The notes beneath the pieces are model-generated. The model saw nothing but the letters and a program-made list of their open reading frames with translations. It was not told the origin of the DNA and did not search any database. Shown here piece by piece: positions 26,646 to 40,898 of a stretch of DNA of 64,000 bases. The stretch covers positions 128,001-192,000 of the forward strand of contig CAVSHR010000003.1 of assembly GCA_963727625.1 (NCBI GenBank), written 5' to 3'. The stretch comes from an uncultured delta proteobacterium (GTDB lineage Bacteria > Desulfobacterota > Binatia > UBA9968). Position numbers and translations under genes: made by a program. Numbering within the stretch: the stretch's first letter is position 1; each line of letters opens with the position of its first letter.

Positions 26646-29111
26646 CTAAAGCTCATGACGATGATCCAGCTCGGCCGTACCGTCCATTGGGAGCTGATTT
26701 AAAATTTCGACCAAAATTTCATACTTGGCCGGTTTGGTGAGATGGGTGTCGAAGCCGGCCTCCTTAGTGCGCTGACGATCCAGCTGCTGTCCCCAACCGG
26801 ATAGAGCGATCAGGAAAATGCCTTTGCCCCCCGGTAGTTGGCGGATCATACGCGCGGCGTCGTAACCATCGAGCTTCGGCATGGCGATATCGAGCACCGC
26901 TACATCGGGGCGAAATTGAGCCGCGGTCTCGACGGCTTCAATGCCGTCCTGAGCGATATGAACTTCATTGCCATCTTGGCGCAACAGACGCGCGAGGATG
27001 GCTGCGGATTGCGGGAAGTCGTCGGCCACCAAGATCCGCCGGCCGCGTTTTGCGGCGATCGGGCAAATCTCCTCTTTGGCACTTAAGCGGTCGGCCAGCG
27101 AAGCCACCGGCGACGCGGGCAAATAAACGATAAATTCGCTGCCACGGTTCAAGCCGTCGCTGTGAACTTCGACCTTGCCGCCGTGGATTTCGACCAGGCG
27201 GTGGACGAGCGTGAGACCGAGCCCAAGCCCGCCCTCGGCGCGGGTATACGAGCGGTCGACCTGGTAGAACAAATCAAACAAGTGCGGCAAATTTTCCGCG
27301 GCGATGCCGATGCCGGTGTCTTTGACGCGCACGACTACCGCGTCGCCCGCCTGCTCGACGTTTAGCCAAATATGGCCCGGGCTGGGCGTGTACTTGGCGG
27401 CATTATTCAACAGATTCATAAAGACCTGGGTCAGTCTAACGCGATCGGCTTCGACACCAATCGAATCTTGCGACATACTTACGGTCAAGTCATGCTGGCG
27501 TTGTTCGATCACCGGCCGGCTTGATTCCACCGCGGCGCGGATGACGTCGGCAAGATTCACCGGCTCTTTTTGCAACGCCAGCTTGTCGCGCGTGATGCGG
27601 CTAACATCGAACAGGTCATCGGTCAGCCGCGTAAGGTAGTTGACCTGGCGCTCGATGATATCTTGCCCCCAACTTGAATCCGTTGCCGGCTTGGCGGGGG
27701 ACTTTTGCAGCGTTGTCACGTTGCGAATCAGCGACAATGGATTACGCAATTCATGGGCCAGGGTTGCCAGAAACTCGTCTTTGCGCTGGTCGGCATCGCG
27801 CAAGGCGGCATCGCTTTCACGCAGCACATTGTCCAGGCGCAATCTTTCCACCGCTAACCAGGTGCGCTCGGCGACGATGTTGACCAAGGTGATTTCGCGC
27901 TCGGTCCATTCGTGCGCGTCACTGTCGGTGACGACAAGTGCCGAGAGTAATTTTCCATCGCGCAGCAAGGGCGTGACCACTAGGGCGCGAACACTGGTTT
28001 CTCGGTGGGGGCCAAATAATCGGGCGGTGCGCTCATCGTTTCCTACATCGGCAATGGCAATAATTTGGCCGGCTTTTGCCGCTATGATCAGAGAAGAGCT
28101 GAGCGCGCTGAAAGGGTATTCGCCGACCAAAGAGGGCGCATGGGGGTGGTAATCGCGTTGCACGGTGAGCCGTTCATGTTCGACGTCGACCTCGATAAAG
28201 CTGCAACGGCTCGACTTCAAATACTCGCCGAGGGCGACTGCGACGGCCCAGAGTAACTCGTCGGCATCGGCCGCGAAGCGAATGCCTTCGCCGAGATCAA
28301 GCAGAAAAAGCGTGTCGGCTTCGGCTTGCTTGCGCCGCGTGATATCCCTCACCGCCACGTTCACGCCGAGCAACTGGCCGGTTTCGGTGTGCACCGGATA
28401 ATAGCTGTATGTGTAGACGCGCCGCTCGCGGGAATGCTCCGGATGGCTGGTTTGAACTTCTTCGTCGATCACCGGTTGACCACTGTCGATCACGCGCCGG
28501 TAATGGGGCTCGATGCTGTCCGCGATTTGCGGCACCGCTTCCCGAACGGTCTTACCGACAAAAGATTCGGGCGAACTGCCGTTCATCTGCGCCAACGCGT
28601 TGTTAATCGAAACGTAGCGCAGGTTACGATCCACGAAACACAGACCGACGGGCGCCGAAGCGTAGATCGTCTTTAAGTGAGCCAACCGCTCATTGGCGAC
28701 TCGTTCGTTTTCGCGCATCACTTCTTGAGCGTGACGATGGCGCAGACTAAGGACGGTCACCGTCCAAATCATCAGCAGGGCTAGACCGTGGTCGAAAAGG
28801 TACACCCAATCCGGCGTGTTCGGCAGGGACGGCGACAAAACATAATTGATGATCATAAGTACGGTCGTCGTCGACGCCGCGACAATCTTTTCGTGAGGCC
28901 TGGGCAAAGCAACCACCAGAAGCAGGCCGGCGACATAACCGACCGGCATGGCGAGGCCCGCTGGTGTCCATAGATTCGCGGTAAAGATGGCGACCAACAG
29001 CAAAAGCACGAATAACCAAAGCAGCCCGCGAAAGACTTCGGATGTCGCTCTTTCCGGCTTGAAGGCAGGGGGAGAATGGGTGGTCGATGAAGATTGTGAA
29101 AGCGCGCTCAC
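26646..29111 (-). CDS. Hybrid sensor histidine kinase (TM-PAS-GAF-HisKA-HATPase-REC)
   Basis: LAHELRNPL, NLLNNAAKYT, DTGIG, GLGLGL, receiver DIAMP; start uncertain (29111-29171). Confidence 0.9.
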   Translation of the reverse strand: MSALSQSSSTTHSPPAFKPERATSEVFRGLLWLFVLLLLVAIFTANLWTPAGLAMPVGYVAGLLLVVALPRPHEKIVAASTTTVLMIINYVLSPSLPNTPDWVYLFDHGLALLMIWTVTVLSLRHRHAQEVMRENERVANERLAHLKTIYASAPVGLCFVDRNLRYVSINNALAQMNGSSPESFVGKTVREAVPQIADSIEPHYRRVIDSGQPVIDEEVQTSHPEHSRERRVYTYSYYPVHTETGQLLGVNVAVRDITRRKQAEADTLFLLDLGEGIRFAADADELLWAVAVALGEYLKSSRCSFIEVDVEHERLTVQRDYHPHAPSLVGEYPFSALSSSLIIAAKAGQIIAIADVGNDERTARLFGPHRETSVRALVVTPLLRDGKLLSALVVTDSDAHEWTEREITLVNIVAERTWLAVERLRLDNVLRESDAALRDADQRKDEFLATLAHELRNPLSLIRNVTTLQKSPAKPATDSSWGQDIIERQVNYLTRLTDDLFDVSRITRDKLALQKEPVNLADVIRAAVESSRPVIEQRQHDLTVSMSQDSIGVEADRVRLTQVFMNLLNNAAKYTPSPGHIWLNVEQAGDAVVVRVKDTGIGIAAENLPHLFDLFYQVDRSYTRAEGGLGLGLTLVHRLVEIHGGKVEVHSDGLNRGSEFIVYLPASPVASLADRLSAKEEICPIAAKRGRRILVADDFPQSAAILARLLRQDGNEVHIAQDGIEAVETAAQFRPDVAVLDIAMPKLDGYDAARMIRQLPGGKGIFLIALSGWGQQLDRQRTKEAGFDTHLTKPAKYEILVEILNQLPMDGTAELDHRHEL

Positions 29112-29421
29112 GTTGCCCTTTCGATTGCGACCGTCTAATGAGGCCAAGGACCTAAAGCTCAAGTGTATCAAACCGGCTGAGCGCCGTACAAGGATTCATT
29201 TGCCCAATGAGCGCCAAATCTTTGCCCGCTCCGACACGCAACCGCAAGCTTAGGACAGATCAAAGGCTTGCCGCCGCGGTGCTTTTGCAAGCGGTCAACT
29301 TTGCAACCGTTTTTGGGGACATTTACGCCCTTTCGCGCGGTCGTTTTTGCTTTAGCGACTGCTTGACAACCCGGGCGGCGCGGTTGATAGATGGCAACAG
29401 CATAACCAAAGGGAGTCGTGC

Positions 29422-31020
29422 ATGGCGAGCAAGAGCAAGTACTATAGAGATTTTCGCGAGCATCTAAAGGCCCTCGAAGAACGCGGCCAATTGCTGCGAA
29501 TAAAACGGGAGATCAACAAAGATACCGAACTGATGCCGCTGGTGCGCTGGCAGTTTCGCGGCTTGGATGAGCGTGAGCGCAAGGCGTTCATGTTCGAAAA
29601 TGTGGTCGACTCCAAGGGACGACGCTACGCTATGCCGGTGACGGTGGGAACCCTGGCGGCGACCACGGAAATCTACGCCATCGGCATGATGTGCCGGCCC
29701 GAGGAGATCCACGAGCGTTGGACGCGGGCGCAAATGAATCCCATCGAGCCGGTTAAAGTGACCAGCGCGGCGGCCCAAGAAGTGGTGTGGCAAGGACAGG
29801 AATTGCTCGACGGCCACGGCCTGGACATGATTCCGGTGCCGATTTCGACGCCGGGCTTCGACAACGCGCCCTATCTCACTTCGGCCAACTGGATCACCAA
29901 AGATCTCGAAACCGGAATTTATAACATCGGCAACTACCGCAGCCAGATCAAATCCGCCAACCGCACGGGCGGATTGTTCACGTCGCAGCATATGGGGCAG
30001 CATTGGCGCAAGTGCAAAGCCAAGGGCAAGCGGCTGGAAGCCTGCATCGCCATCGGTGTGGTGCCGAGCATCGCCTATTCGGCGACCGCGAAGATTCCCT
30101 ACGACTTCGACGAATATCGGCTCGCCGGCGGTCTGGCCGGGGCGCCGGTGGAAGTGGTTCAGGCGAAGACCGTCGACCTCCTGGTACCGGCGACGGCGGA
30201 AATCATAATCGAAGGAACCATTCCCACCGATGTCGTCGAACCGGAAGGACCATTCGGCGAATATCCCGGTTACATGGGCCACCGCACGGTTTCACCGTTC
30301 CTTGAAGTCACCTGCGTCACGCACCGCCGCGACGCGATCTACACGGCGTTAATGAGTCAATTCCCGCCCAGCGAGTCGAGTAAGATCAAACATACCGGCA
30401 CGGAAAAAATCATCTACAAATTTCTCCGCCACGACAGCGGCAATGCGGCGGTGGTCGACGTGGCGTTGCACGACGAGGTGAGCGGCAGCGGCCAGGCGTA
30501 TTGCGTAATCAAGATGCGTAACGCCACCAAGGCCGATGCCTGGCGCGCCTTGAATGCGTCAGCCGGCTTTACCGGCAGCTATGCCAAGGTCTGCGTCGCG
30601 GTGGATGAAGACATCGACATTCAAGACCCGGCGATGATCAATTGGGCGATCTGTTACAACATGAGACCGGACGAAGACGTGGCGATCGCCAAGGGAAAGC
30701 CGCCCGGTCTCGACCCGTCGACATATCCACCCGGAATGGAGACCGAGGAAAAACGGCCGGGTTCGACCTCCGCGCTGCTGCTCAATGCCGTGCGTCCATG
30801 GCCTTATACGCCGGTATCGTTGCCGAAGAAAGAGTTCATGGAAGGTTCTAAGCAAATCTGGGAGGAGCTTGAGTTGCCGCCGCTCAAGCCGCGCATGCCT
30901 TGGTATGGTTACAGTCTCGGCGCTTGGACCGCACAGGACGAGGAGGAAGCCGACTTGGCCGTGAAGGGGGATTATTTCGCCACGGGAACCAAGCAGGTCG
31001 GGCAACGAAAGAAAACCTGA
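29422..31020 (+). CDS. UbiD-family (prFMN-dependent) decarboxylase
   Basis: DFREHL, NIGNYR, EGPFGEYPGY, VDEDID. Confidence 0.9.
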   Translation: MASKSKYYRDFREHLKALEERGQLLRIKREINKDTELMPLVRWQFRGLDERERKAFMFENVVDSKGRRYAMPVTVGTLAATTEIYAIGMMCRPEEIHERWTRAQMNPIEPVKVTSAAAQEVVWQGQELLDGHGLDMIPVPISTPGFDNAPYLTSANWITKDLETGIYNIGNYRSQIKSANRTGGLFTSQHMGQHWRKCKAKGKRLEACIAIGVVPSIAYSATAKIPYDFDEYRLAGGLAGAPVEVVQAKTVDLLVPATAEIIIEGTIPTDVVEPEGPFGEYPGYMGHRTVSPFLEVTCVTHRRDAIYTALMSQFPPSESSKIKHTGTEKIIYKFLRHDSGNAAVVDVALHDEVSGSGQAYCVIKMRNATKADAWRALNASAGFTGSYAKVCVAVDEDIDIQDPAMINWAICYNMRPDEDVAIAKGKPPGLDPSTYPPGMETEEKRPGSTSALLLNAVRPWPYTPVSLPKKEFMEGSKQIWEELELPPLKPRMPWYGYSLGAWTAQDEEEADLAVKGDYFATGTKQVGQRKKT

Positions 31021-31955: not shown

Positions 31956-33059
31956 TCACGGCCAGATCTCCGCGGCGGCGTGGACAACGAGATCGAGCTT
32001 GCGCTTTTGATCGCTCGGTGAAATGCGATTGCCGAAAATTGAAGAAGCGAAGCCGCACTGCGGGCTCAGTCCTAGCCGGTCTTTTGAAATGTACCGGGTG
32101 GCTTCGGTGATGCGTTCCGTCAACACTTCGATCGATTCCAAATCCGGTTTTTTCGTCGTTACCAGTCCTAAGACGACAAATTTTTCGCTCGGCACATCCC
32201 GCAACGGCTCGAATGACCCGGAGCGAGCATCGTCGTATTCCAACAGCAGCCGCTGGGCTTGAATGCCGCGGAACAAGTTGCGGCTGATCGCTTCATAACC
32301 CCCTTGTGACAGCCACCGGCTGCCCTGGTTGCCGCGTCAAATGTGAAACCCGAAGGTGACATCATTAAAGCCCTTGATTACGGCGTTGTCGAGTTCGATG
32401 CCGAGGGAAAGCCATTTTTCCAAACTCCAGCCGAGTCCTTCATAGAAGGCGCGGGTGCTAGGATCGACCAGCAACCCGTAATGCGGCGCATCGATCTGAA
32501 TGTATGCTGCGCCGAGGCGATTCAATTCCGCGACCTCATCGCGCAAGATTTTTACAATATCGGCGAGAAAGCCGTCGAGCGTCGGATAGGCAGCGGAAGA
32601 ATATTTCGGCGACCAAAAATTGGCCCATAAACTGGGACTCGGAAGCGTCACTTTCGGAATTTTCCCGGTTTTGCTCTTGAGGTAAGAAAATTCAGACGCC
32701 GAGAGAAAACGAAGGCGATTCAGTTTGGCGACGGCGCCGAGGCGGCGCGGCCGTCGAGTCTTGTGCACGCCCCCGTCGTCGCGCCAATCGCCCCACAGAA
32801 AAGCGTCGAGATTGAATCGGCCGAAGCCGCTCACCGCGGCGGTCATTTGAGTTTGAAACGACTGGCGGCGCATCTCGCCGTCGGTGACGATTTCCAGGCC
32901 GATACTTTCTTGCAAAGCGATGGCCTCGTCGACGGCGCGGTCTTCTATGACTTTGAACTGAGCAGCCGTTATGACTTCGGCAGCAAGTTGCTTTTGAGCC
33001 TCCAGCAGTTCGGCCGGGCGAAGTAAGCTGCCGACAACGTCGGTATGAGTGGTAATCAC
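31956..33059 (-). CDS. Cobalamin-independent methionine synthase II (half-size MetE-like) family protein, probable selenoprotein; in-frame TGA at 32339-32337 (residue 241 of 367)
   Basis: VGSLLRP, TDGEMRR, QIDAP, then FGFHI-TGA-RGNQGSRWLSQGGYE continuing in frame into LLLEYDDARSGSFEPL and LSPQCGFAS; the two ORF-track pieces are the same frame. Confidence 0.85.
32308..32339 (-). promoter_or_regulatory. UGA plus bacterial SECIS-like hairpin
   Basis: mRNA UGA-CGCGGCAACCAG-GGCAGCC-GGU-GGCUGUC: a 7-bp stem after a 12-nt spacer from UGA, with a GGU apical loop. Confidence 0.65.
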
Positions 33060-37183: not shown

Positions 37184-37852
37184 CTATCTGAGGGCACGTA
37201 GTGCTTGGATACGTTCTGAAGTCGCGGGGTGAGTTGAAAGGATGCCGCCACCGGTGTCGCCGTTGCGGCGCACGAGCCAGGTCAAGGTGTCGATCATAGT
37301 CTTTTTTGAATAGCCGGCTCGTTGCAAAAGAGTGACTGCGTGTCGGTCGGCTTCAAGCTCGAGCGGACGGGTGTAACTGTTGCTGATCAATGTGCCGGCA
37401 ATCGGGGTTACCGAACTGCTGCCGGGAATAAGTTCTTCCAACAACGCAACTCCCATGCTAACGCCGGTGCCGATGATCTGTGCCTTGGCAGGATGACCGA
37501 GATCCTCATGAGCGATCTCATGGGCGAGCACGCCGCGCAGTTGCTCATCGTTGGCGCGATGCAACAGGCCGGAGGTGACGTAGTAATGGCCGTTACCCGC
37601 GCTCGCGGCATTAATCGCCGGATCATCGACGATGGACAAGCGGACCTCCTCACGCGCTAGGCGCTGATCTGTGACGCGCAGTAGCGGCAGCATGACCGAG
37701 CGCAGCCGGGCCGTCTGTTGTTCCGCGCGGGCCGAAGAGTAGTCGCGCCGATCTTCCCGCTCATTGCGAAATGCGCCGGCTTGGGACGCGGCGCTGAGAA
37801 AAAACACGGCGGTTAAAAAGACCAGCCACCGGGTCGGTTGGTTCATCGTCAT
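37184..37852 (-). CDS. M48-family zinc metallopeptidase, exported
   Basis: INA, LRGVLAHEIAH, ELEADR, STHPATSERI; signal peptide; alternative start 37885. Confidence 0.88.
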   Translation of the reverse strand: MTMNQPTRWLVFLTAVFFLSAASQAGAFRNEREDRRDYSSARAEQQTARLRSVMLPLLRVTDQRLAREEVRLSIVDDPAINAASAGNGHYYVTSGLLHRANDEQLRGVLAHEIAHEDLGHPAKAQIIGTGVSMGVALLEELIPGSSSVTPIAGTLISNSYTRPLELEADRHAVTLLQRAGYSKKTMIDTLTWLVRRNGDTGGGILSTHPATSERIQALRALR

Positions 37853-37910
37853 AGCCTCTGACTTGGCGCTTGTAAGGGTGGACATAATTCTATCCAGAAT
37901 TTAAATTAGA

Positions 37911-37925
37911 GCAATGCCCATGCCA
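37911..37925 (-). promoter_or_regulatory. sigma54 (-24/-12) promoter
   Basis: Minus strand TGGCATGGGCATTGC = GG-N10-GC, upstream of the M48 gene. Confidence 0.75.
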
Positions 37926-38006
37926 CCGAACAGTCCCGGTAATGACGAGAGTTGCGCGAAGATGGCCGTCGCCGGCCGGGAATAAATGTTCGGCGCCGGG
38001 GAAAAA

Positions 38007-39362
<1,356 letters not shown>

Positions 39363-40898
39363 TTATTGTATCGCCTCCAGGGGCAGCGTGATTCGGAAAG
39401 TCGCGCCGTTCCCGTCACCGTTACGATCATGATAGACCAGCGAGCCGCCATGGGATTCGACAATCAACTGGCTGAGCGGCAAGCCGATTCCGCTGCCGCC
39501 GACTTTAGTGGTTTTGCCGAATTCAAACAATTCCGCGCGCCGTTCAGGCGGCACGCCCGGGCCCGCGTCGCTGATTTCGACGACCAACTCCCGGTCGTTG
39601 TAATTGGCCGACACGTGAATTTCGCCGCCGTCGGGCTGCGCTTCCATGGCGTTGCGCAACAAGTTATCAAAGCTCTGACGCAGCCGGGTCGCATCCCCCT
39701 GGATTGGCCATGGTCCGGGCGCGAGCGTGGCCGCAAGCTTGATCTTTTTTACCGCGCAGGCCGAGCCCGCCGCCTCCAAGCTCTTGCCCAGTACTTCGCC
39801 GACATCGATCGGTTTTTTTTCCATCGCCACCGGCGCCGAGTAGTCGGTAAAGTCGCGCACCAAGCGATCGACTTGACGTATGCTCGAATCCAGCGCCGAA
39901 AGCGAGCGGCGTGATTGCGCGTCGTTATCATCTTCGGCGCTGACCTTGTTGCGCAGCACCTCGAGATGAATCGTTAGCGCGTTGAGCGGGGTTTTCACCT
40001 CGTGAGCGAGAGTTCGCGCGGCGATCGCCAGGCGCTGCACCGGCGCCGGCACACCGACGATTTTGCGCTGCTTCATCACCAAGCGGTCGATCAAATCCAG
40101 GCTCGCGCCAACTTCGTCGTCGCTGGCGTAGGTGGGGCGAGCGGCGTAGGTGCCTGCTTCGGCCTGGCGCAGGGTATCGCTGATCAGGCGAAAGCGGCGG
40201 GTGTAGAGCGCGGTGGTGACGAAAGCGCTGAGCAGCGCCACGACTCCGCCGAGGATGAAGAGCAAAATAAACTGGTGCCATAGCCCCGACAAGAGTCCGG
40301 TCCAATCGGCCGGATTAATCCAAAGTCGCAGGCCTCCCGGGCTGCTCACGCCGGCGGGCATTTGTAAGGGAACCCAAATGTCGTAGTATGGGATATTGCC
40401 TTGGCGTTTGGCGTTGACGACCGTCTCCCCAGCGCGCAATTTGTCGAGCAGGGTTTCACTAACGAGCGTTCGGTCCCGATCCCCTTCCACCGAGCTGTAG
40501 AGCAATTTCCCTTCCGCGTTGACCACCCACATGGCTGCGATGCTCGCGCTGCGATCGAGAAACGCCTGTATCAGCCCTTTCACTTCGGCCTGGCGCGGCG
40601 GAGTATAGCGCAGGGGCCTGCTCGACGAGCTTCCGGTGCTTTTTCCAGGTAAAAGATTGCCTAGAAAATCCCAAAAAGACGAAGATCGTTGTCCTTGCCG
40701 GGGCTGGACGACAATCGAGCGCTCGCGCAAACTGTCGGCCAGGGCGATTTCTACTTGCCGCGCCATTAACAACGCGGTCTGGAGCGTCGCCTCAGTAGTG
40801 AGGCGCTGGGCGATCAGCCAGATGCCCGCGCCGAGAATGCTGAAAATTACCACGACCGTGCCGCAAAAAACCGCGATTTGTTGCTGGCGTAGACTCAT
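39363..40898 (-). CDS. Membrane sensor histidine kinase
   Basis: Two TM helices, AHEVKTPL, NLLRNAMEA, DAGPG, GSGIGL; abuts the response regulator. Confidence 0.92.
   Translation of the reverse strand: MSLRQQQIAVFCGTVVVIFSILGAGIWLIAQRLTTEATLQTALLMARQVEIALADSLRERSIVVQPRQGQRSSSFWDFLGNLLPGKSTGSSSSRPLRYTPPRQAEVKGLIQAFLDRSASIAAMWVVNAEGKLLYSSVEGDRDRTLVSETLLDKLRAGETVVNAKRQGNIPYYDIWVPLQMPAGVSSPGGLRLWINPADWTGLLSGLWHQFILLFILGGVVALLSAFVTTALYTRRFRLISDTLRQAEAGTYAARPTYASDDEVGASLDLIDRLVMKQRKIVGVPAPVQRLAIAARTLAHEVKTPLNALTIHLEVLRNKVSAEDDNDAQSRRSLSALDSSIRQVDRLVRDFTDYSAPVAMEKKPIDVGEVLGKSLEAAGSACAVKKIKLAATLAPGPWPIQGDATRLRQSFDNLLRNAMEAQPDGGEIHVSANYNDRELVVEISDAGPGVPPERRAELFEFGKTTKVGGSGIGLPLSQLIVESHGGSLVYHDRNGDGNGATFRITLPLEAIQ

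Follow-up and report, generated by a model that had tools for sequence, protein, structure and literature searches.

The window analysed here, a stretch of 64,000 nucleotides (nt) from an uncultured delta proteobacterium (assembly GCA_963727625.1, contig CAVSHR010000003.1, called C3 below, positions 128001-192000), carries at 31956-33059 of its minus strand a gene for a MetE-like protein of family PF01717. This gene very likely decodes an internal UGA codon as selenocysteine (Sec), placing Sec at a predicted zinc-ligand position. Two minus-strand open reading frames (ORFs), 33059-32337 (240 amino acids (aa), GTG start) and 32276-31956 (106 aa), share a common frame. Read through from 33059 to 31956, this frame has 367 codons, with its sole internal TGA at codon 241 (32337-32339), no frameshift and no additional stop. 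The gene is complete, encoding 367 residues between a GTG start (33059-33057) and a terminal TGA (31958-31956), and its start position is the same as that of full-length Cys orthologues (367-369 aa). An earlier note on this DNA had described a single frame running through the TGA; the read-through bears this out, and the peptides that it quoted, FGFHI-U-RGNQGSRWLSQGGYEAISRNLF, LLLEYDDARSGSFEPL and LSPQCGFAS, are all found in the translation. The region 33059-31956 is one intact gene. It was also expected to be split by standard gene callers, and the ORF list indeed gives it as pieces of 240 aa and 106 aa. Family members cut into two fragments in this way are miscounted in selenoproteome surveys.

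According to the proposed mechanism, codon 241 would be decoded as Sec during translation, with a hairpin 12 nt downstream recruiting SelB and Sec-tRNA(Sec), as in other bacterial selenoprotein genes. The product would be a single-barrel enzyme of the MetE catalytic-domain type, from the YxjG/1YPX-like branch, in which His239, Sec241, Glu274 and Cys335 would form the metal site and a selenolate would replace one of the two zinc-holding Cys thiolates. By homology, the zinc would activate a thiol or selenol substrate, probably with a homocysteine-like amino-acid moiety, for alkyl (methyl) transfer. The single frame, the Sec/Cys column, the Sec machinery, the purifying selection downstream of the TGA, the fold and the ligand positions were computed, and from these we infer the actual insertion of selenium, the binding of zinc and the chemistry.

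UGA/cysteine alternation in one conserved frame

Orthologues bearing exactly one TGA were recovered from 23 of 60 related genomes, with 62-79% identity. Sixteen of them belong to the same genus, four to other genera of the family and three to another family of the order, and in all 23 the TGA encodes the residue that follows H-x in the motif H-x-U-R-G-N. One same-genus orthologue (genome G009) has TGC at the Sec column. With each species represented by a single genome, a scan found 80 loci, of which 45 carry TGA and 35 carry Cys at this column. By depositors' titles, the TGA forms come from Binatia, Poribacteria (six), Thermoanaerobaculia, Desulfobacterales, Latescibacterota, two Acidobacteria, Caldilineaceae and Anaerolineales. 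The clade of the window is taken as Candidatus Binatia by record titles, several rows there being labelled otherwise, e.g. 'Deltaproteobacteria'. Removal of duplicates left 91 distinct orthologues from genomes, which divide at this column into 56 Sec and 35 Cys forms; two of the 56 come from unpublished genomes (G005 and G035), and the claims made here are independent of both. A metagenome scan gave 80 further loci, 51 with TGA and 29 with Cys at the column. Protein identity of the Sec-form orthologues from genomes and metagenomes is 58-80%. Paralogues at about 43% identity all carry Cys at the column. Also, full-length Cys homologues (63-78% identity) number in the thousands in the protein database; where named, they are called 'cobalamin-independent methionine synthase II family protein'. 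The TGA is thus not private to this genome, and the conserved alternation of TGA and Cys that the earlier note had looked to for a decision is present in both data sets.

A maximum likelihood (ML) tree was built from 90 orthologues and three paralogues, with rows shorter than 300 aa dropped and the Sec/Cys column masked. The branch of the orthogroup has a support of 100, and the tree requires at least nine Sec/Cys changes, of which at least three are forced by well-supported branches.

Selection on either side of the TGA was compared in 30 full-length Sec forms by the ratio of nonsynonymous to synonymous substitution rates (dN/dS). The median was 0.100 for codons 2-240 and 0.108 for codons 242-366, with 203 of 435 pairs usable and dS saturated at about 1.8, and no further stop or frameshift occurs in any of the 30. 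Purifying selection is therefore equally strong before and after the TGA, where relaxation after the stop had been named beforehand as a possible outcome. The motif R-G-N-Q-G-S-R-W-L, directly after the TGA, is invariant or nearly so, and the 12 residues following U241 are among the most conserved.

Were the TGA a real stop, the locus would be a pseudogene, a sequencing or assembly error, or a pair of genes of 240 and 106 aa. Such a reading agrees with the splitting of the locus by standard gene callers, and it can appeal to the estimated contamination of the assembly (6.3%) and to the fact that no public contig runs across the TGA to confirm the base in the strain. Against it stand the recurrence of the TGA at this column, in 56 of the distinct orthologues from genomes and in 51 of the 80 metagenome loci, the frame free of further stops and frameshifts, and the near-equal dN/dS values, these last subject to the saturation of dS. 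In addition, 20 codons separate the TGA from the first restart (TTG, 32276), and in them lies the most conserved motif of the family; since R-G-N-Q-G-S-R-W-L precedes this first possible restart codon, two separate genes are ruled out. Glu274 and Cys335 are both encoded downstream of the TGA, so that neither half alone could form the zinc site. A genuine stop at codon 241 is thus considered extremely improbable.

Selenocysteine machinery and the downstream hairpin

The genome (6.6 Mb in 15 contigs, estimated to be 98.45% complete with 6.3% contamination) encodes the Sec machinery that the earlier note had proposed to search for. Profile matches to selA (607.5 bits), selB (397.5 bits), selD (377 bits) and tRNA-Sec (selC; 76.7 bits) are all above curated cut-offs and all on contig C5, where selA, selB and selD form one cluster (C5:715112-719466) and the tRNA-Sec gene lies about 50 kb further (C5:768830-768924). 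The selD gene itself has one in-frame TGA (G-U-A-A-K). ARAGORN predicted 49 tRNAs in the genome, a single one of them with a UCA anticodon; it is called as tRNA-SeC and has the 8-bp acceptor stem and G73 of typical tRNA-Sec architecture. A tRNA scan of the window found no tRNA.

Outside the order of the window, selA scored above the cut-off in 10 of 11 TGA-form genomes, the exception being a fragmentary 3.6-Mb assembly, and in 12 of 16 Cys-form genomes. In G009, the same-genus genome with the Cys form (93% complete), neither selA nor tRNA-Sec was found above the gathering score, which fits a conversion to Cys following loss of Sec decoding. Searches for tRNA-Sec in five genomes lacking a selA match gave borderline scores of 43.8-50.5 bits, near the cross-hits of the window's genome. 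A SenA match flagged with one TGA in genome G014 was considered as a further Sec candidate and rejected, as the TGAs lie upstream of the conserved start region.

The UGA might also be recoded to a residue other than Sec, by a UCA-anticodon Cys tRNA as the earlier note had envisaged, by near-cognate read-through or by a reassigned code. All non-TGA orthologues have Cys at the column, which means that insertion of Cys would yield a working enzyme, and the inserted residue is not distinguishable by computation. Recoding of this kind is nonetheless judged very unlikely. The lone UCA tRNA of the 49 is a typical tRNA-Sec, disfavouring a UCA-anticodon Cys tRNA; the set of selA, selB and selD is full; and the genetic code is not reassigned, because TGA also ends the selenoprotein gene itself. 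The distribution of selA among Sec-form genomes, the TGC of G009, where selA and tRNA-Sec were not detectable, and the retention of a SelB-type G[G/U]U loop by all Sec forms point in the same direction. Decoding of codon 241 as selenocysteine, as originally proposed for this residue, is supported by the machinery, the conserved TGA/Cys column, the selection downstream and the tRNA-Sec.

The candidate selenocysteine insertion sequence (SECIS) is a hairpin at 32308-32324 of the minus strand, with a 5' arm GGCAGCC (32324-32318), a GGU loop (32317-32315) and a 3' arm GGCUGUC (32314-32308). A spacer of 12 nt (32336-32325) separates it from the UGA, and the distance from UGA to loop is 19 nt. Both the minimum free energy (MFE) and the centroid structures of RNAfold contain the 7-bp hairpin, which alone folds at -9.5 kcal/mol, so that the stem-loop described in the earlier note holds in sequence and in predicted structure. 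The possible lower AACC/GGUU helix was kept in part: 84.3% of its cells are paired, and one pair of the four cannot form in 30 of 54 distinct sequences. The bacterial SECIS (bSECIS) model calls for a loop of 3-9 nt, an upper stem of 4-16 bp, 16-37 nt from UGA to loop, an MFE of -7.5 kcal/mol or below, and a G in the first two loop positions, mostly as G[G/U] (PMC13188914). The window hairpin satisfies these constraints with its GGU loop, 7 bp, 19 nt and -9.5 kcal/mol. Among the Sec forms, the energy threshold of -7.5 kcal/mol is reached by the 17-nt hairpin alone in 27 of 56 and by the 47 nt after the codon in 55 of 55. For comparison within the genome, nothing above the FdhA cut-off (TIGR01553) was found and selD was used instead; 33 nt beyond its UGA lies a hairpin whose 3-nt loop is GUC.

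As the fold energy of the single sequence is unremarkable, the case for a SECIS rests on comparative evidence. In an alignment of 55 Sec forms (A1) all five upper pairs persist, and 89.7% of cells are paired versus at most 70.9% when the partners are slid. Pair 24-36 changes from CG to AU in two sequences and from CG to GU in two, and is broken in seven able to use a bulged register. The loop is G[G/U]U in 56/56 Sec forms and 14/35 Cys forms, the full 7-bp stem occurs in 36/56 and 3/35, respectively, and the residue at codon +5, in the 5' arm of the stem, is Gly in 53/56 Sec forms and variable in Cys forms. The Arg codon of the loop follows the same division. In genomes, the 56 Sec forms use CGG (49) and CGT (7) and never CGC, and the 35 Cys forms use CGC (21), CGG (11) and CGT (3). 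In metagenomes, the 51 Sec forms use CGG (42), CGT (8) and AGG (1), and the 29 Cys forms CGC (16), CGT (8), CGA (2), CGG (2) and another codon (1). On these counts, differential codon use is a sharper signal than covariation. The association of Sec with loop type has a raw Fisher p of 1.4e-11, relatedness being ignored in this test.

Several observations weigh against Sec decoding at this locus or against the hairpin as its signal. The sel genes are on contig C5 and the window gene on C3, in an assembly of 15 contigs with 6.3% contamination, and in public sequencing runs, four of which contain parts of the gene, no contig matching it bridges the TGA. The energy of the hairpin is unexceptional for G+C-rich DNA: the 66-nt fold has a z of -0.44, and 61 of 200 shuffles were equal or better. 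Since the invariant R-G-N-Q-G-S-R-W-L is encoded here, covariation is weak: three pairs show double changes, and 72 of 500 shuffles reach as many. The 5-bp core and the G[G/U]U loop (14/35) occur in Cys forms too. Part of the hairpin thus follows from the protein sequence, through the ordinary codons for G-S-R-W-L, and the element probably arose out of a hairpin that already existed. In a phylogeny-aware sign test the association between Sec and loop type is non-significant, with only three independent pairs on supported branches, and the corresponding test for the stem likewise has three independent pairs and is underpowered. Finally, an Rfam scan of the window gave no match.

Among the public sequences, an RNA library (a salt-marsh metatranscriptome) contains a 202-nt contig identical to 32842-33043, a match that is not proof of transcription. 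Soil metagenome contigs match other parts of the gene, none of them across the UGA.

Enzyme family and predicted metal site

The window protein matches PF01717 (Meth_synt_2) with 66 bits against a cut-off of 21. Its scores on the NCBIfam models NF005085 (PRK06520; 239.4 bits, cut-off 313) and NF004875 (PRK06233, YxjG-like; 226.5 bits, cut-off 576) are below threshold, and by these profile scores it is related to both families and, by NCBI thresholds, a member of neither. Full-length MetE (TIGR01371) is matched with 35.5 bits against a cut-off of 929.95; with 367 aa and a single barrel, the protein as predicted is not to be filed as canonical MetE. No selenoprotein-specific model in NCBIfam release 20.0 matches it.

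The closest solved sequence relative is 1YPX, a structural-genomics protein from Listeria (E 2.5e-40, residues 5-366). An AlphaFold model made with a 55-row alignment reached a predicted local distance difference test (pLDDT) score of 88.7 and a predicted template modelling (pTM) score of 0.90; a single-sequence model (pLDDT 33.8) was discarded. The best Foldseek matches of the model are MetE structures, with template modelling (TM) scores of 0.73-0.77, and 1YPX, followed more distantly by MtaA-type methyltransferases and uroporphyrinogen decarboxylases.

Global alignment by hhalign to Escherichia coli MetE (probability 98.9) equates H239 with H641, U241 with C643, E274 with E665 and C335 with C726, and also S11 with S433, E62 with E484 and D190 with D599. 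In PMC7857596, H641, C643, E665 and C726 are given as zinc ligands and S433, E484 and D599 as homocysteine-binding residues. All seven functional positions are invariant in 55 aligned homologues. The predicted ligands of the window protein are encoded on the minus strand at 32343-32345 (His239), 32238-32240 (Glu274) and 32055-32057 (Cys335), and the UGA at 32337-32339 takes the place of the zinc-ligand Cys of H-x-C. The zinc site formulated in the earlier note (His-x-Cys, a Glu and the later Cys of SPQCG) is thus reproduced in its ligand positions, with U241 on C643. Relative to MetE, an insertion of 11 residues follows the H-x-U motif. Two other alignments to MetE were rejected: that of MAFFT, to the E. 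coli protein, misplaced the H-x-C motif by two columns, and the local alignments of hmmsearch skipped the middle of the protein, leaving only the global hhalign coherent.

The protein thus resembles the C-terminal catalytic barrel of MetE (E. coli, Thermotoga maritima, Candida albicans) in family (PF01717), fold and the H/C/E/C and S/E/D positions common to both. It differs in having one barrel where MetE has two (about 750 aa), in an identity of about 16-20% of aligned residues and in its UGA-encoded first Cys ligand. The methyl donor is not deducible from MetE because the folate-binding N-terminal domain of that enzyme is absent here. YxjG/YxjH-like proteins such as 1YPX (375 aa) are closer, being of similar length and single-barrelled, with a motif H-I-C-R-G-N matching that of the window protein. 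In contrast to the latter, 1YPX has Cys at the position; its function is uncharacterised, its name was given by the depositor, and the window protein falls in a separate orthogroup (support 100). MesA-MesD, the core folate-independent methionine synthases of Price et al. (2021), compared by functional residues alone, have the same conserved zinc and homocysteine residues, and no Sec forms of them are described in the accessible portion of PMC7857596; the best NCBIfam matches of the window protein are YxjG-type and not archaeal-type methionine synthase models. A putative thiol-alkylating activity would follow by homology.

In its main elements the gene combines a known family with a known recoding mechanism; new are Sec at the predicted zinc-ligand position of an alkyltransferase and a genomic association with selenoneine genes. 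The selenoproteins known so far are mostly redox enzymes that use Sec as the redox-active residue or as a ligand of a redox metal. Replacement of Cys by Sec as a ligand of a catalytic metal has precedents in formate dehydrogenase (Mo/W-Sec) and [NiFeSe] hydrogenase (Ni-Sec), where Sec/Cys pairs also exist (PMC13188914). Those are redox enzymes with redox-active metals, whereas redox-inert zinc and alkyl transfer are predicted here. Sec on the zinc of an alkyl-transfer enzyme would, if true, be a chemically different use of selenium. As a natural Sec/Cys pair with at least nine switches on its tree, the orthogroup lends itself well to studying what advantage Sec confers at a Lewis-acid site. 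Its family occurs widely among phyla of soil and sea (Binatia, Poribacteria, Acidobacteriota, Latescibacterota and Chloroflexota).

The earlier note knew of no characterised Sec member of this family, and the literature examined (main texts and one family table) agrees. The prokaryotic selenoprotein table of a May 2026 review, with 119 families and subfamilies, has no PF01717, methionine-synthase or homocysteine entry (PMC13188914). Full-text literature searches found no description of a Sec-containing MetE-like protein, supplementary tables, which could list candidates, being outside their scope. The terms 'methionine synthase', 'MetE' and 'homocysteine' are absent from the main texts of PMC13188914, PMC12013277, PMC13326102 and PMC2398784; the main texts checked include the deep-Sep and BSepDB papers and the Global Ocean Sampling (GOS) analysis, and PF01717 was looked for only in PMC13188914. 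In PMC9402790, 'methionine synthase' refers only to the B12 enzyme MetH.

Gene neighbourhood and a possible role in selenium metabolism

Orthologues of the window gene directly adjoin genes for SenA (NF041186), SenB (TIGR04348) and SelD/SenC in several phyla, recalling the selenoneine cluster senA/senB/senC (Kayrouz et al.; bioRxiv 10.1101/2022.04.13.486033). In six Poribacteria loci an Amidohydro_2 gene (PF04909) directly precedes the Sec orthologue, which is followed by selD (TIGR00476, 349 bits); in the five with a long enough flank SenB comes next (TIGR04348, 402.6 bits against a cut-off of 300). The start of SenA lies 33 nt after the Sec orthologue in a Thermoanaerobaculia locus (L091). 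In Latescibacterota, one locus (L106) has the order Sec orthologue, transglutaminase-like gene, SenA, SenB, and in a second genome (G085) SenA is, by coordinates, about 3.3 kb downstream of a Cys orthologue. A gammaproteobacterium (G437, locus L150) has a Cys orthologue followed after 2 nt by an oxidoreductase-SelD fusion and then by SenB and SenA, the latter with 522 bits on NF041186 (cut-off 420). In an Acidiferrobacterales locus (L094) the order is selD, TauE and Cys orthologue. Among metagenome contigs, SenA is directly downstream in two (L223 and L236) and selD-SenB-SenA directly upstream in one (L227).

SelD scored above the cut-off in 28 of the 29 orthologue-bearing genomes tested, three of them without selA; for bacteria in general, the published frequencies are 33.7% for SelD and 21.5% for the Sec trait (PMC5029168). 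The own genome also has SenB (401 bits, cut-off 300) adjoining SenA (482 bits, cut-off 420) at C11:371327-373640 (L155 and L163), and since the two genes are side by side the organism is predicted to make selenoneine.

Since orthologues from several phyla have selD, senA or senB as neighbours, and since hardly any orthologue-bearing genome lacks selD, the orthogroup may act in selenium small-molecule metabolism, in the selenoneine pathway or in selenide supply, a role to which about even chances are given. The recurrent adjacency offers a testable lead to a missing step of selenoneine or selenide metabolism. A more specific version, in which the orthogroup accompanies the selenoneine genes and, as a zinc enzyme with Sec or Cys as a ligand, methylates or demethylates a selenol, appears rather unlikely as it stands. 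In its Sec forms such an enzyme would be the first one in nature to have a Zn-selenolate at its catalytic site. Candidate reactions may be the making of Se-methylselenoneine or of a methyl-selenosugar, or the demethylation of Se-methyl compounds to return selenide to SelD.

A number of findings run counter to such a link. The selenoneine cluster as described comprises three genes, and the senA and senB genes of the own genome are on contig C11 and not beside the window gene. SenA exceeds the cut-off in only 18 of the 29 orthologue-bearing genomes, and in the order of the window it is near-universal (52 of 61 genomes), with or without the orthologue. At most loci the available flanks, many of them short, contain no sen gene. 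Also, the conserved Ser/Glu/Asp triad would fit plain homocysteine equally well. Of 400 genomes scored across the class of the Acidiferrobacterales genome, 3 had the orthologue, too few for a co-occurrence statistic.

If Sec is accepted, the protein may still be an ordinary folate-independent methionine synthase, converting homocysteine to methionine, with no special tie to selenium. Sec would then have been recruited only because these organisms decode it, and the sen neighbourhood would reflect a demand for recycling of methionine and S-adenosylmethionine (SAM), or chance. This is a serious possibility, if one of less than even probability; an ordinary homocysteine methyltransferase takes most of the odds left by a role in selenium small-molecule metabolism. 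The protein retains every zinc position of MetE and its three homocysteine-binding residues, as the paralogues of about 43% identity equally do; the closest NCBIfam models are methionine-synthase models; and the window gene is not beside sen genes, with SenA missing from 11 of the 29 orthologue-bearing genomes. Against this, the genome already has a full MetH (1663 bits), and 11 matches to the window protein in it include six further full-length MetE-like proteins, for which reason the window copy is unlikely to be the housekeeping methionine synthase. A full MetE was not found in the genome. The NCBIfam scores are under the family cut-offs (239 against 313 and 227 against 576), and the frequency of selD among orthologue-bearing genomes is far above the published background. 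Adjacency to selD, senA or senB also recurs in varied gene orders, in Poribacteria, Thermoanaerobaculia, Latescibacterota, two Gammaproteobacteria and three metagenome contigs.

The MetE-like paralogues of the own genome are found at C4:1306199-1308593 (two in tandem), C6:63162, C2:626044, C9:41899, C9:460953 and C4:17345, with weaker ones besides. All carry Cys at the ligand position, and relatives have up to 24 matches. The copy at C9:460953-461270 encodes a fragment of 106 residues that shares 75% identity with the N-terminus of the window protein, and is possibly a gene remnant.

In the window itself, a plus-strand gene for a TauE/SafE-family membrane protein (PF01925; 31198-31947) is convergent with the selenoprotein gene and ends 8 nt from its stop. 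TauE adjacency recurs in 28 genome loci (27 of Binatia type and the Acidiferrobacterales locus) and in 27 of the 80 metagenome loci, making the TauE/SafE protein a possible functional partner. Upstream of the selenoprotein gene, on the minus strand, an Amidohydro_2 gene (PF04909; 33183-34379) ends 123 nt before the start, with a second Amidohydro_2 copy (PF04909; 34590-35594) upstream of the first. Any link of these genes to the selenoprotein gene is weak. Assignment of the Poribacteria and window Amidohydro_2 proteins to the same subfamily was rejected, as they give no BLAST cross-hit and have only the Pfam family in common.

Some further features were observed in the loci compared. The SelD proteins of G437 (L150:9676-12030) and of genome G236 (contig C2) have an N-terminal pyridine-nucleotide-disulfide oxidoreductase (TIGR03169 and TIGR00476). 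In an Anaerolineales locus, an MttB-superfamily methyltransferase (PF06253, 703 bits; L137:1409-2965) immediately precedes the Sec orthologue in the same orientation and scores below the cut-off of the pyrrolysine-type model TIGR02369; this neighbour hints at a corrinoid-linked methyl donor in that lineage. Beyond the TauE gene of the window is a plus-strand gene for a UbiD-family decarboxylase (29422-31020). Synteny of UbiD and TauE is kept in many Binatia loci and may represent a module for aromatic-acid or other decarboxylation. The minus-strand regions 37184-40898 and 26646-29171 of the window encode an M48 peptidase, a sigma-54-dependent response regulator with a histidine kinase, and a PAS/GAF hybrid histidine kinase.

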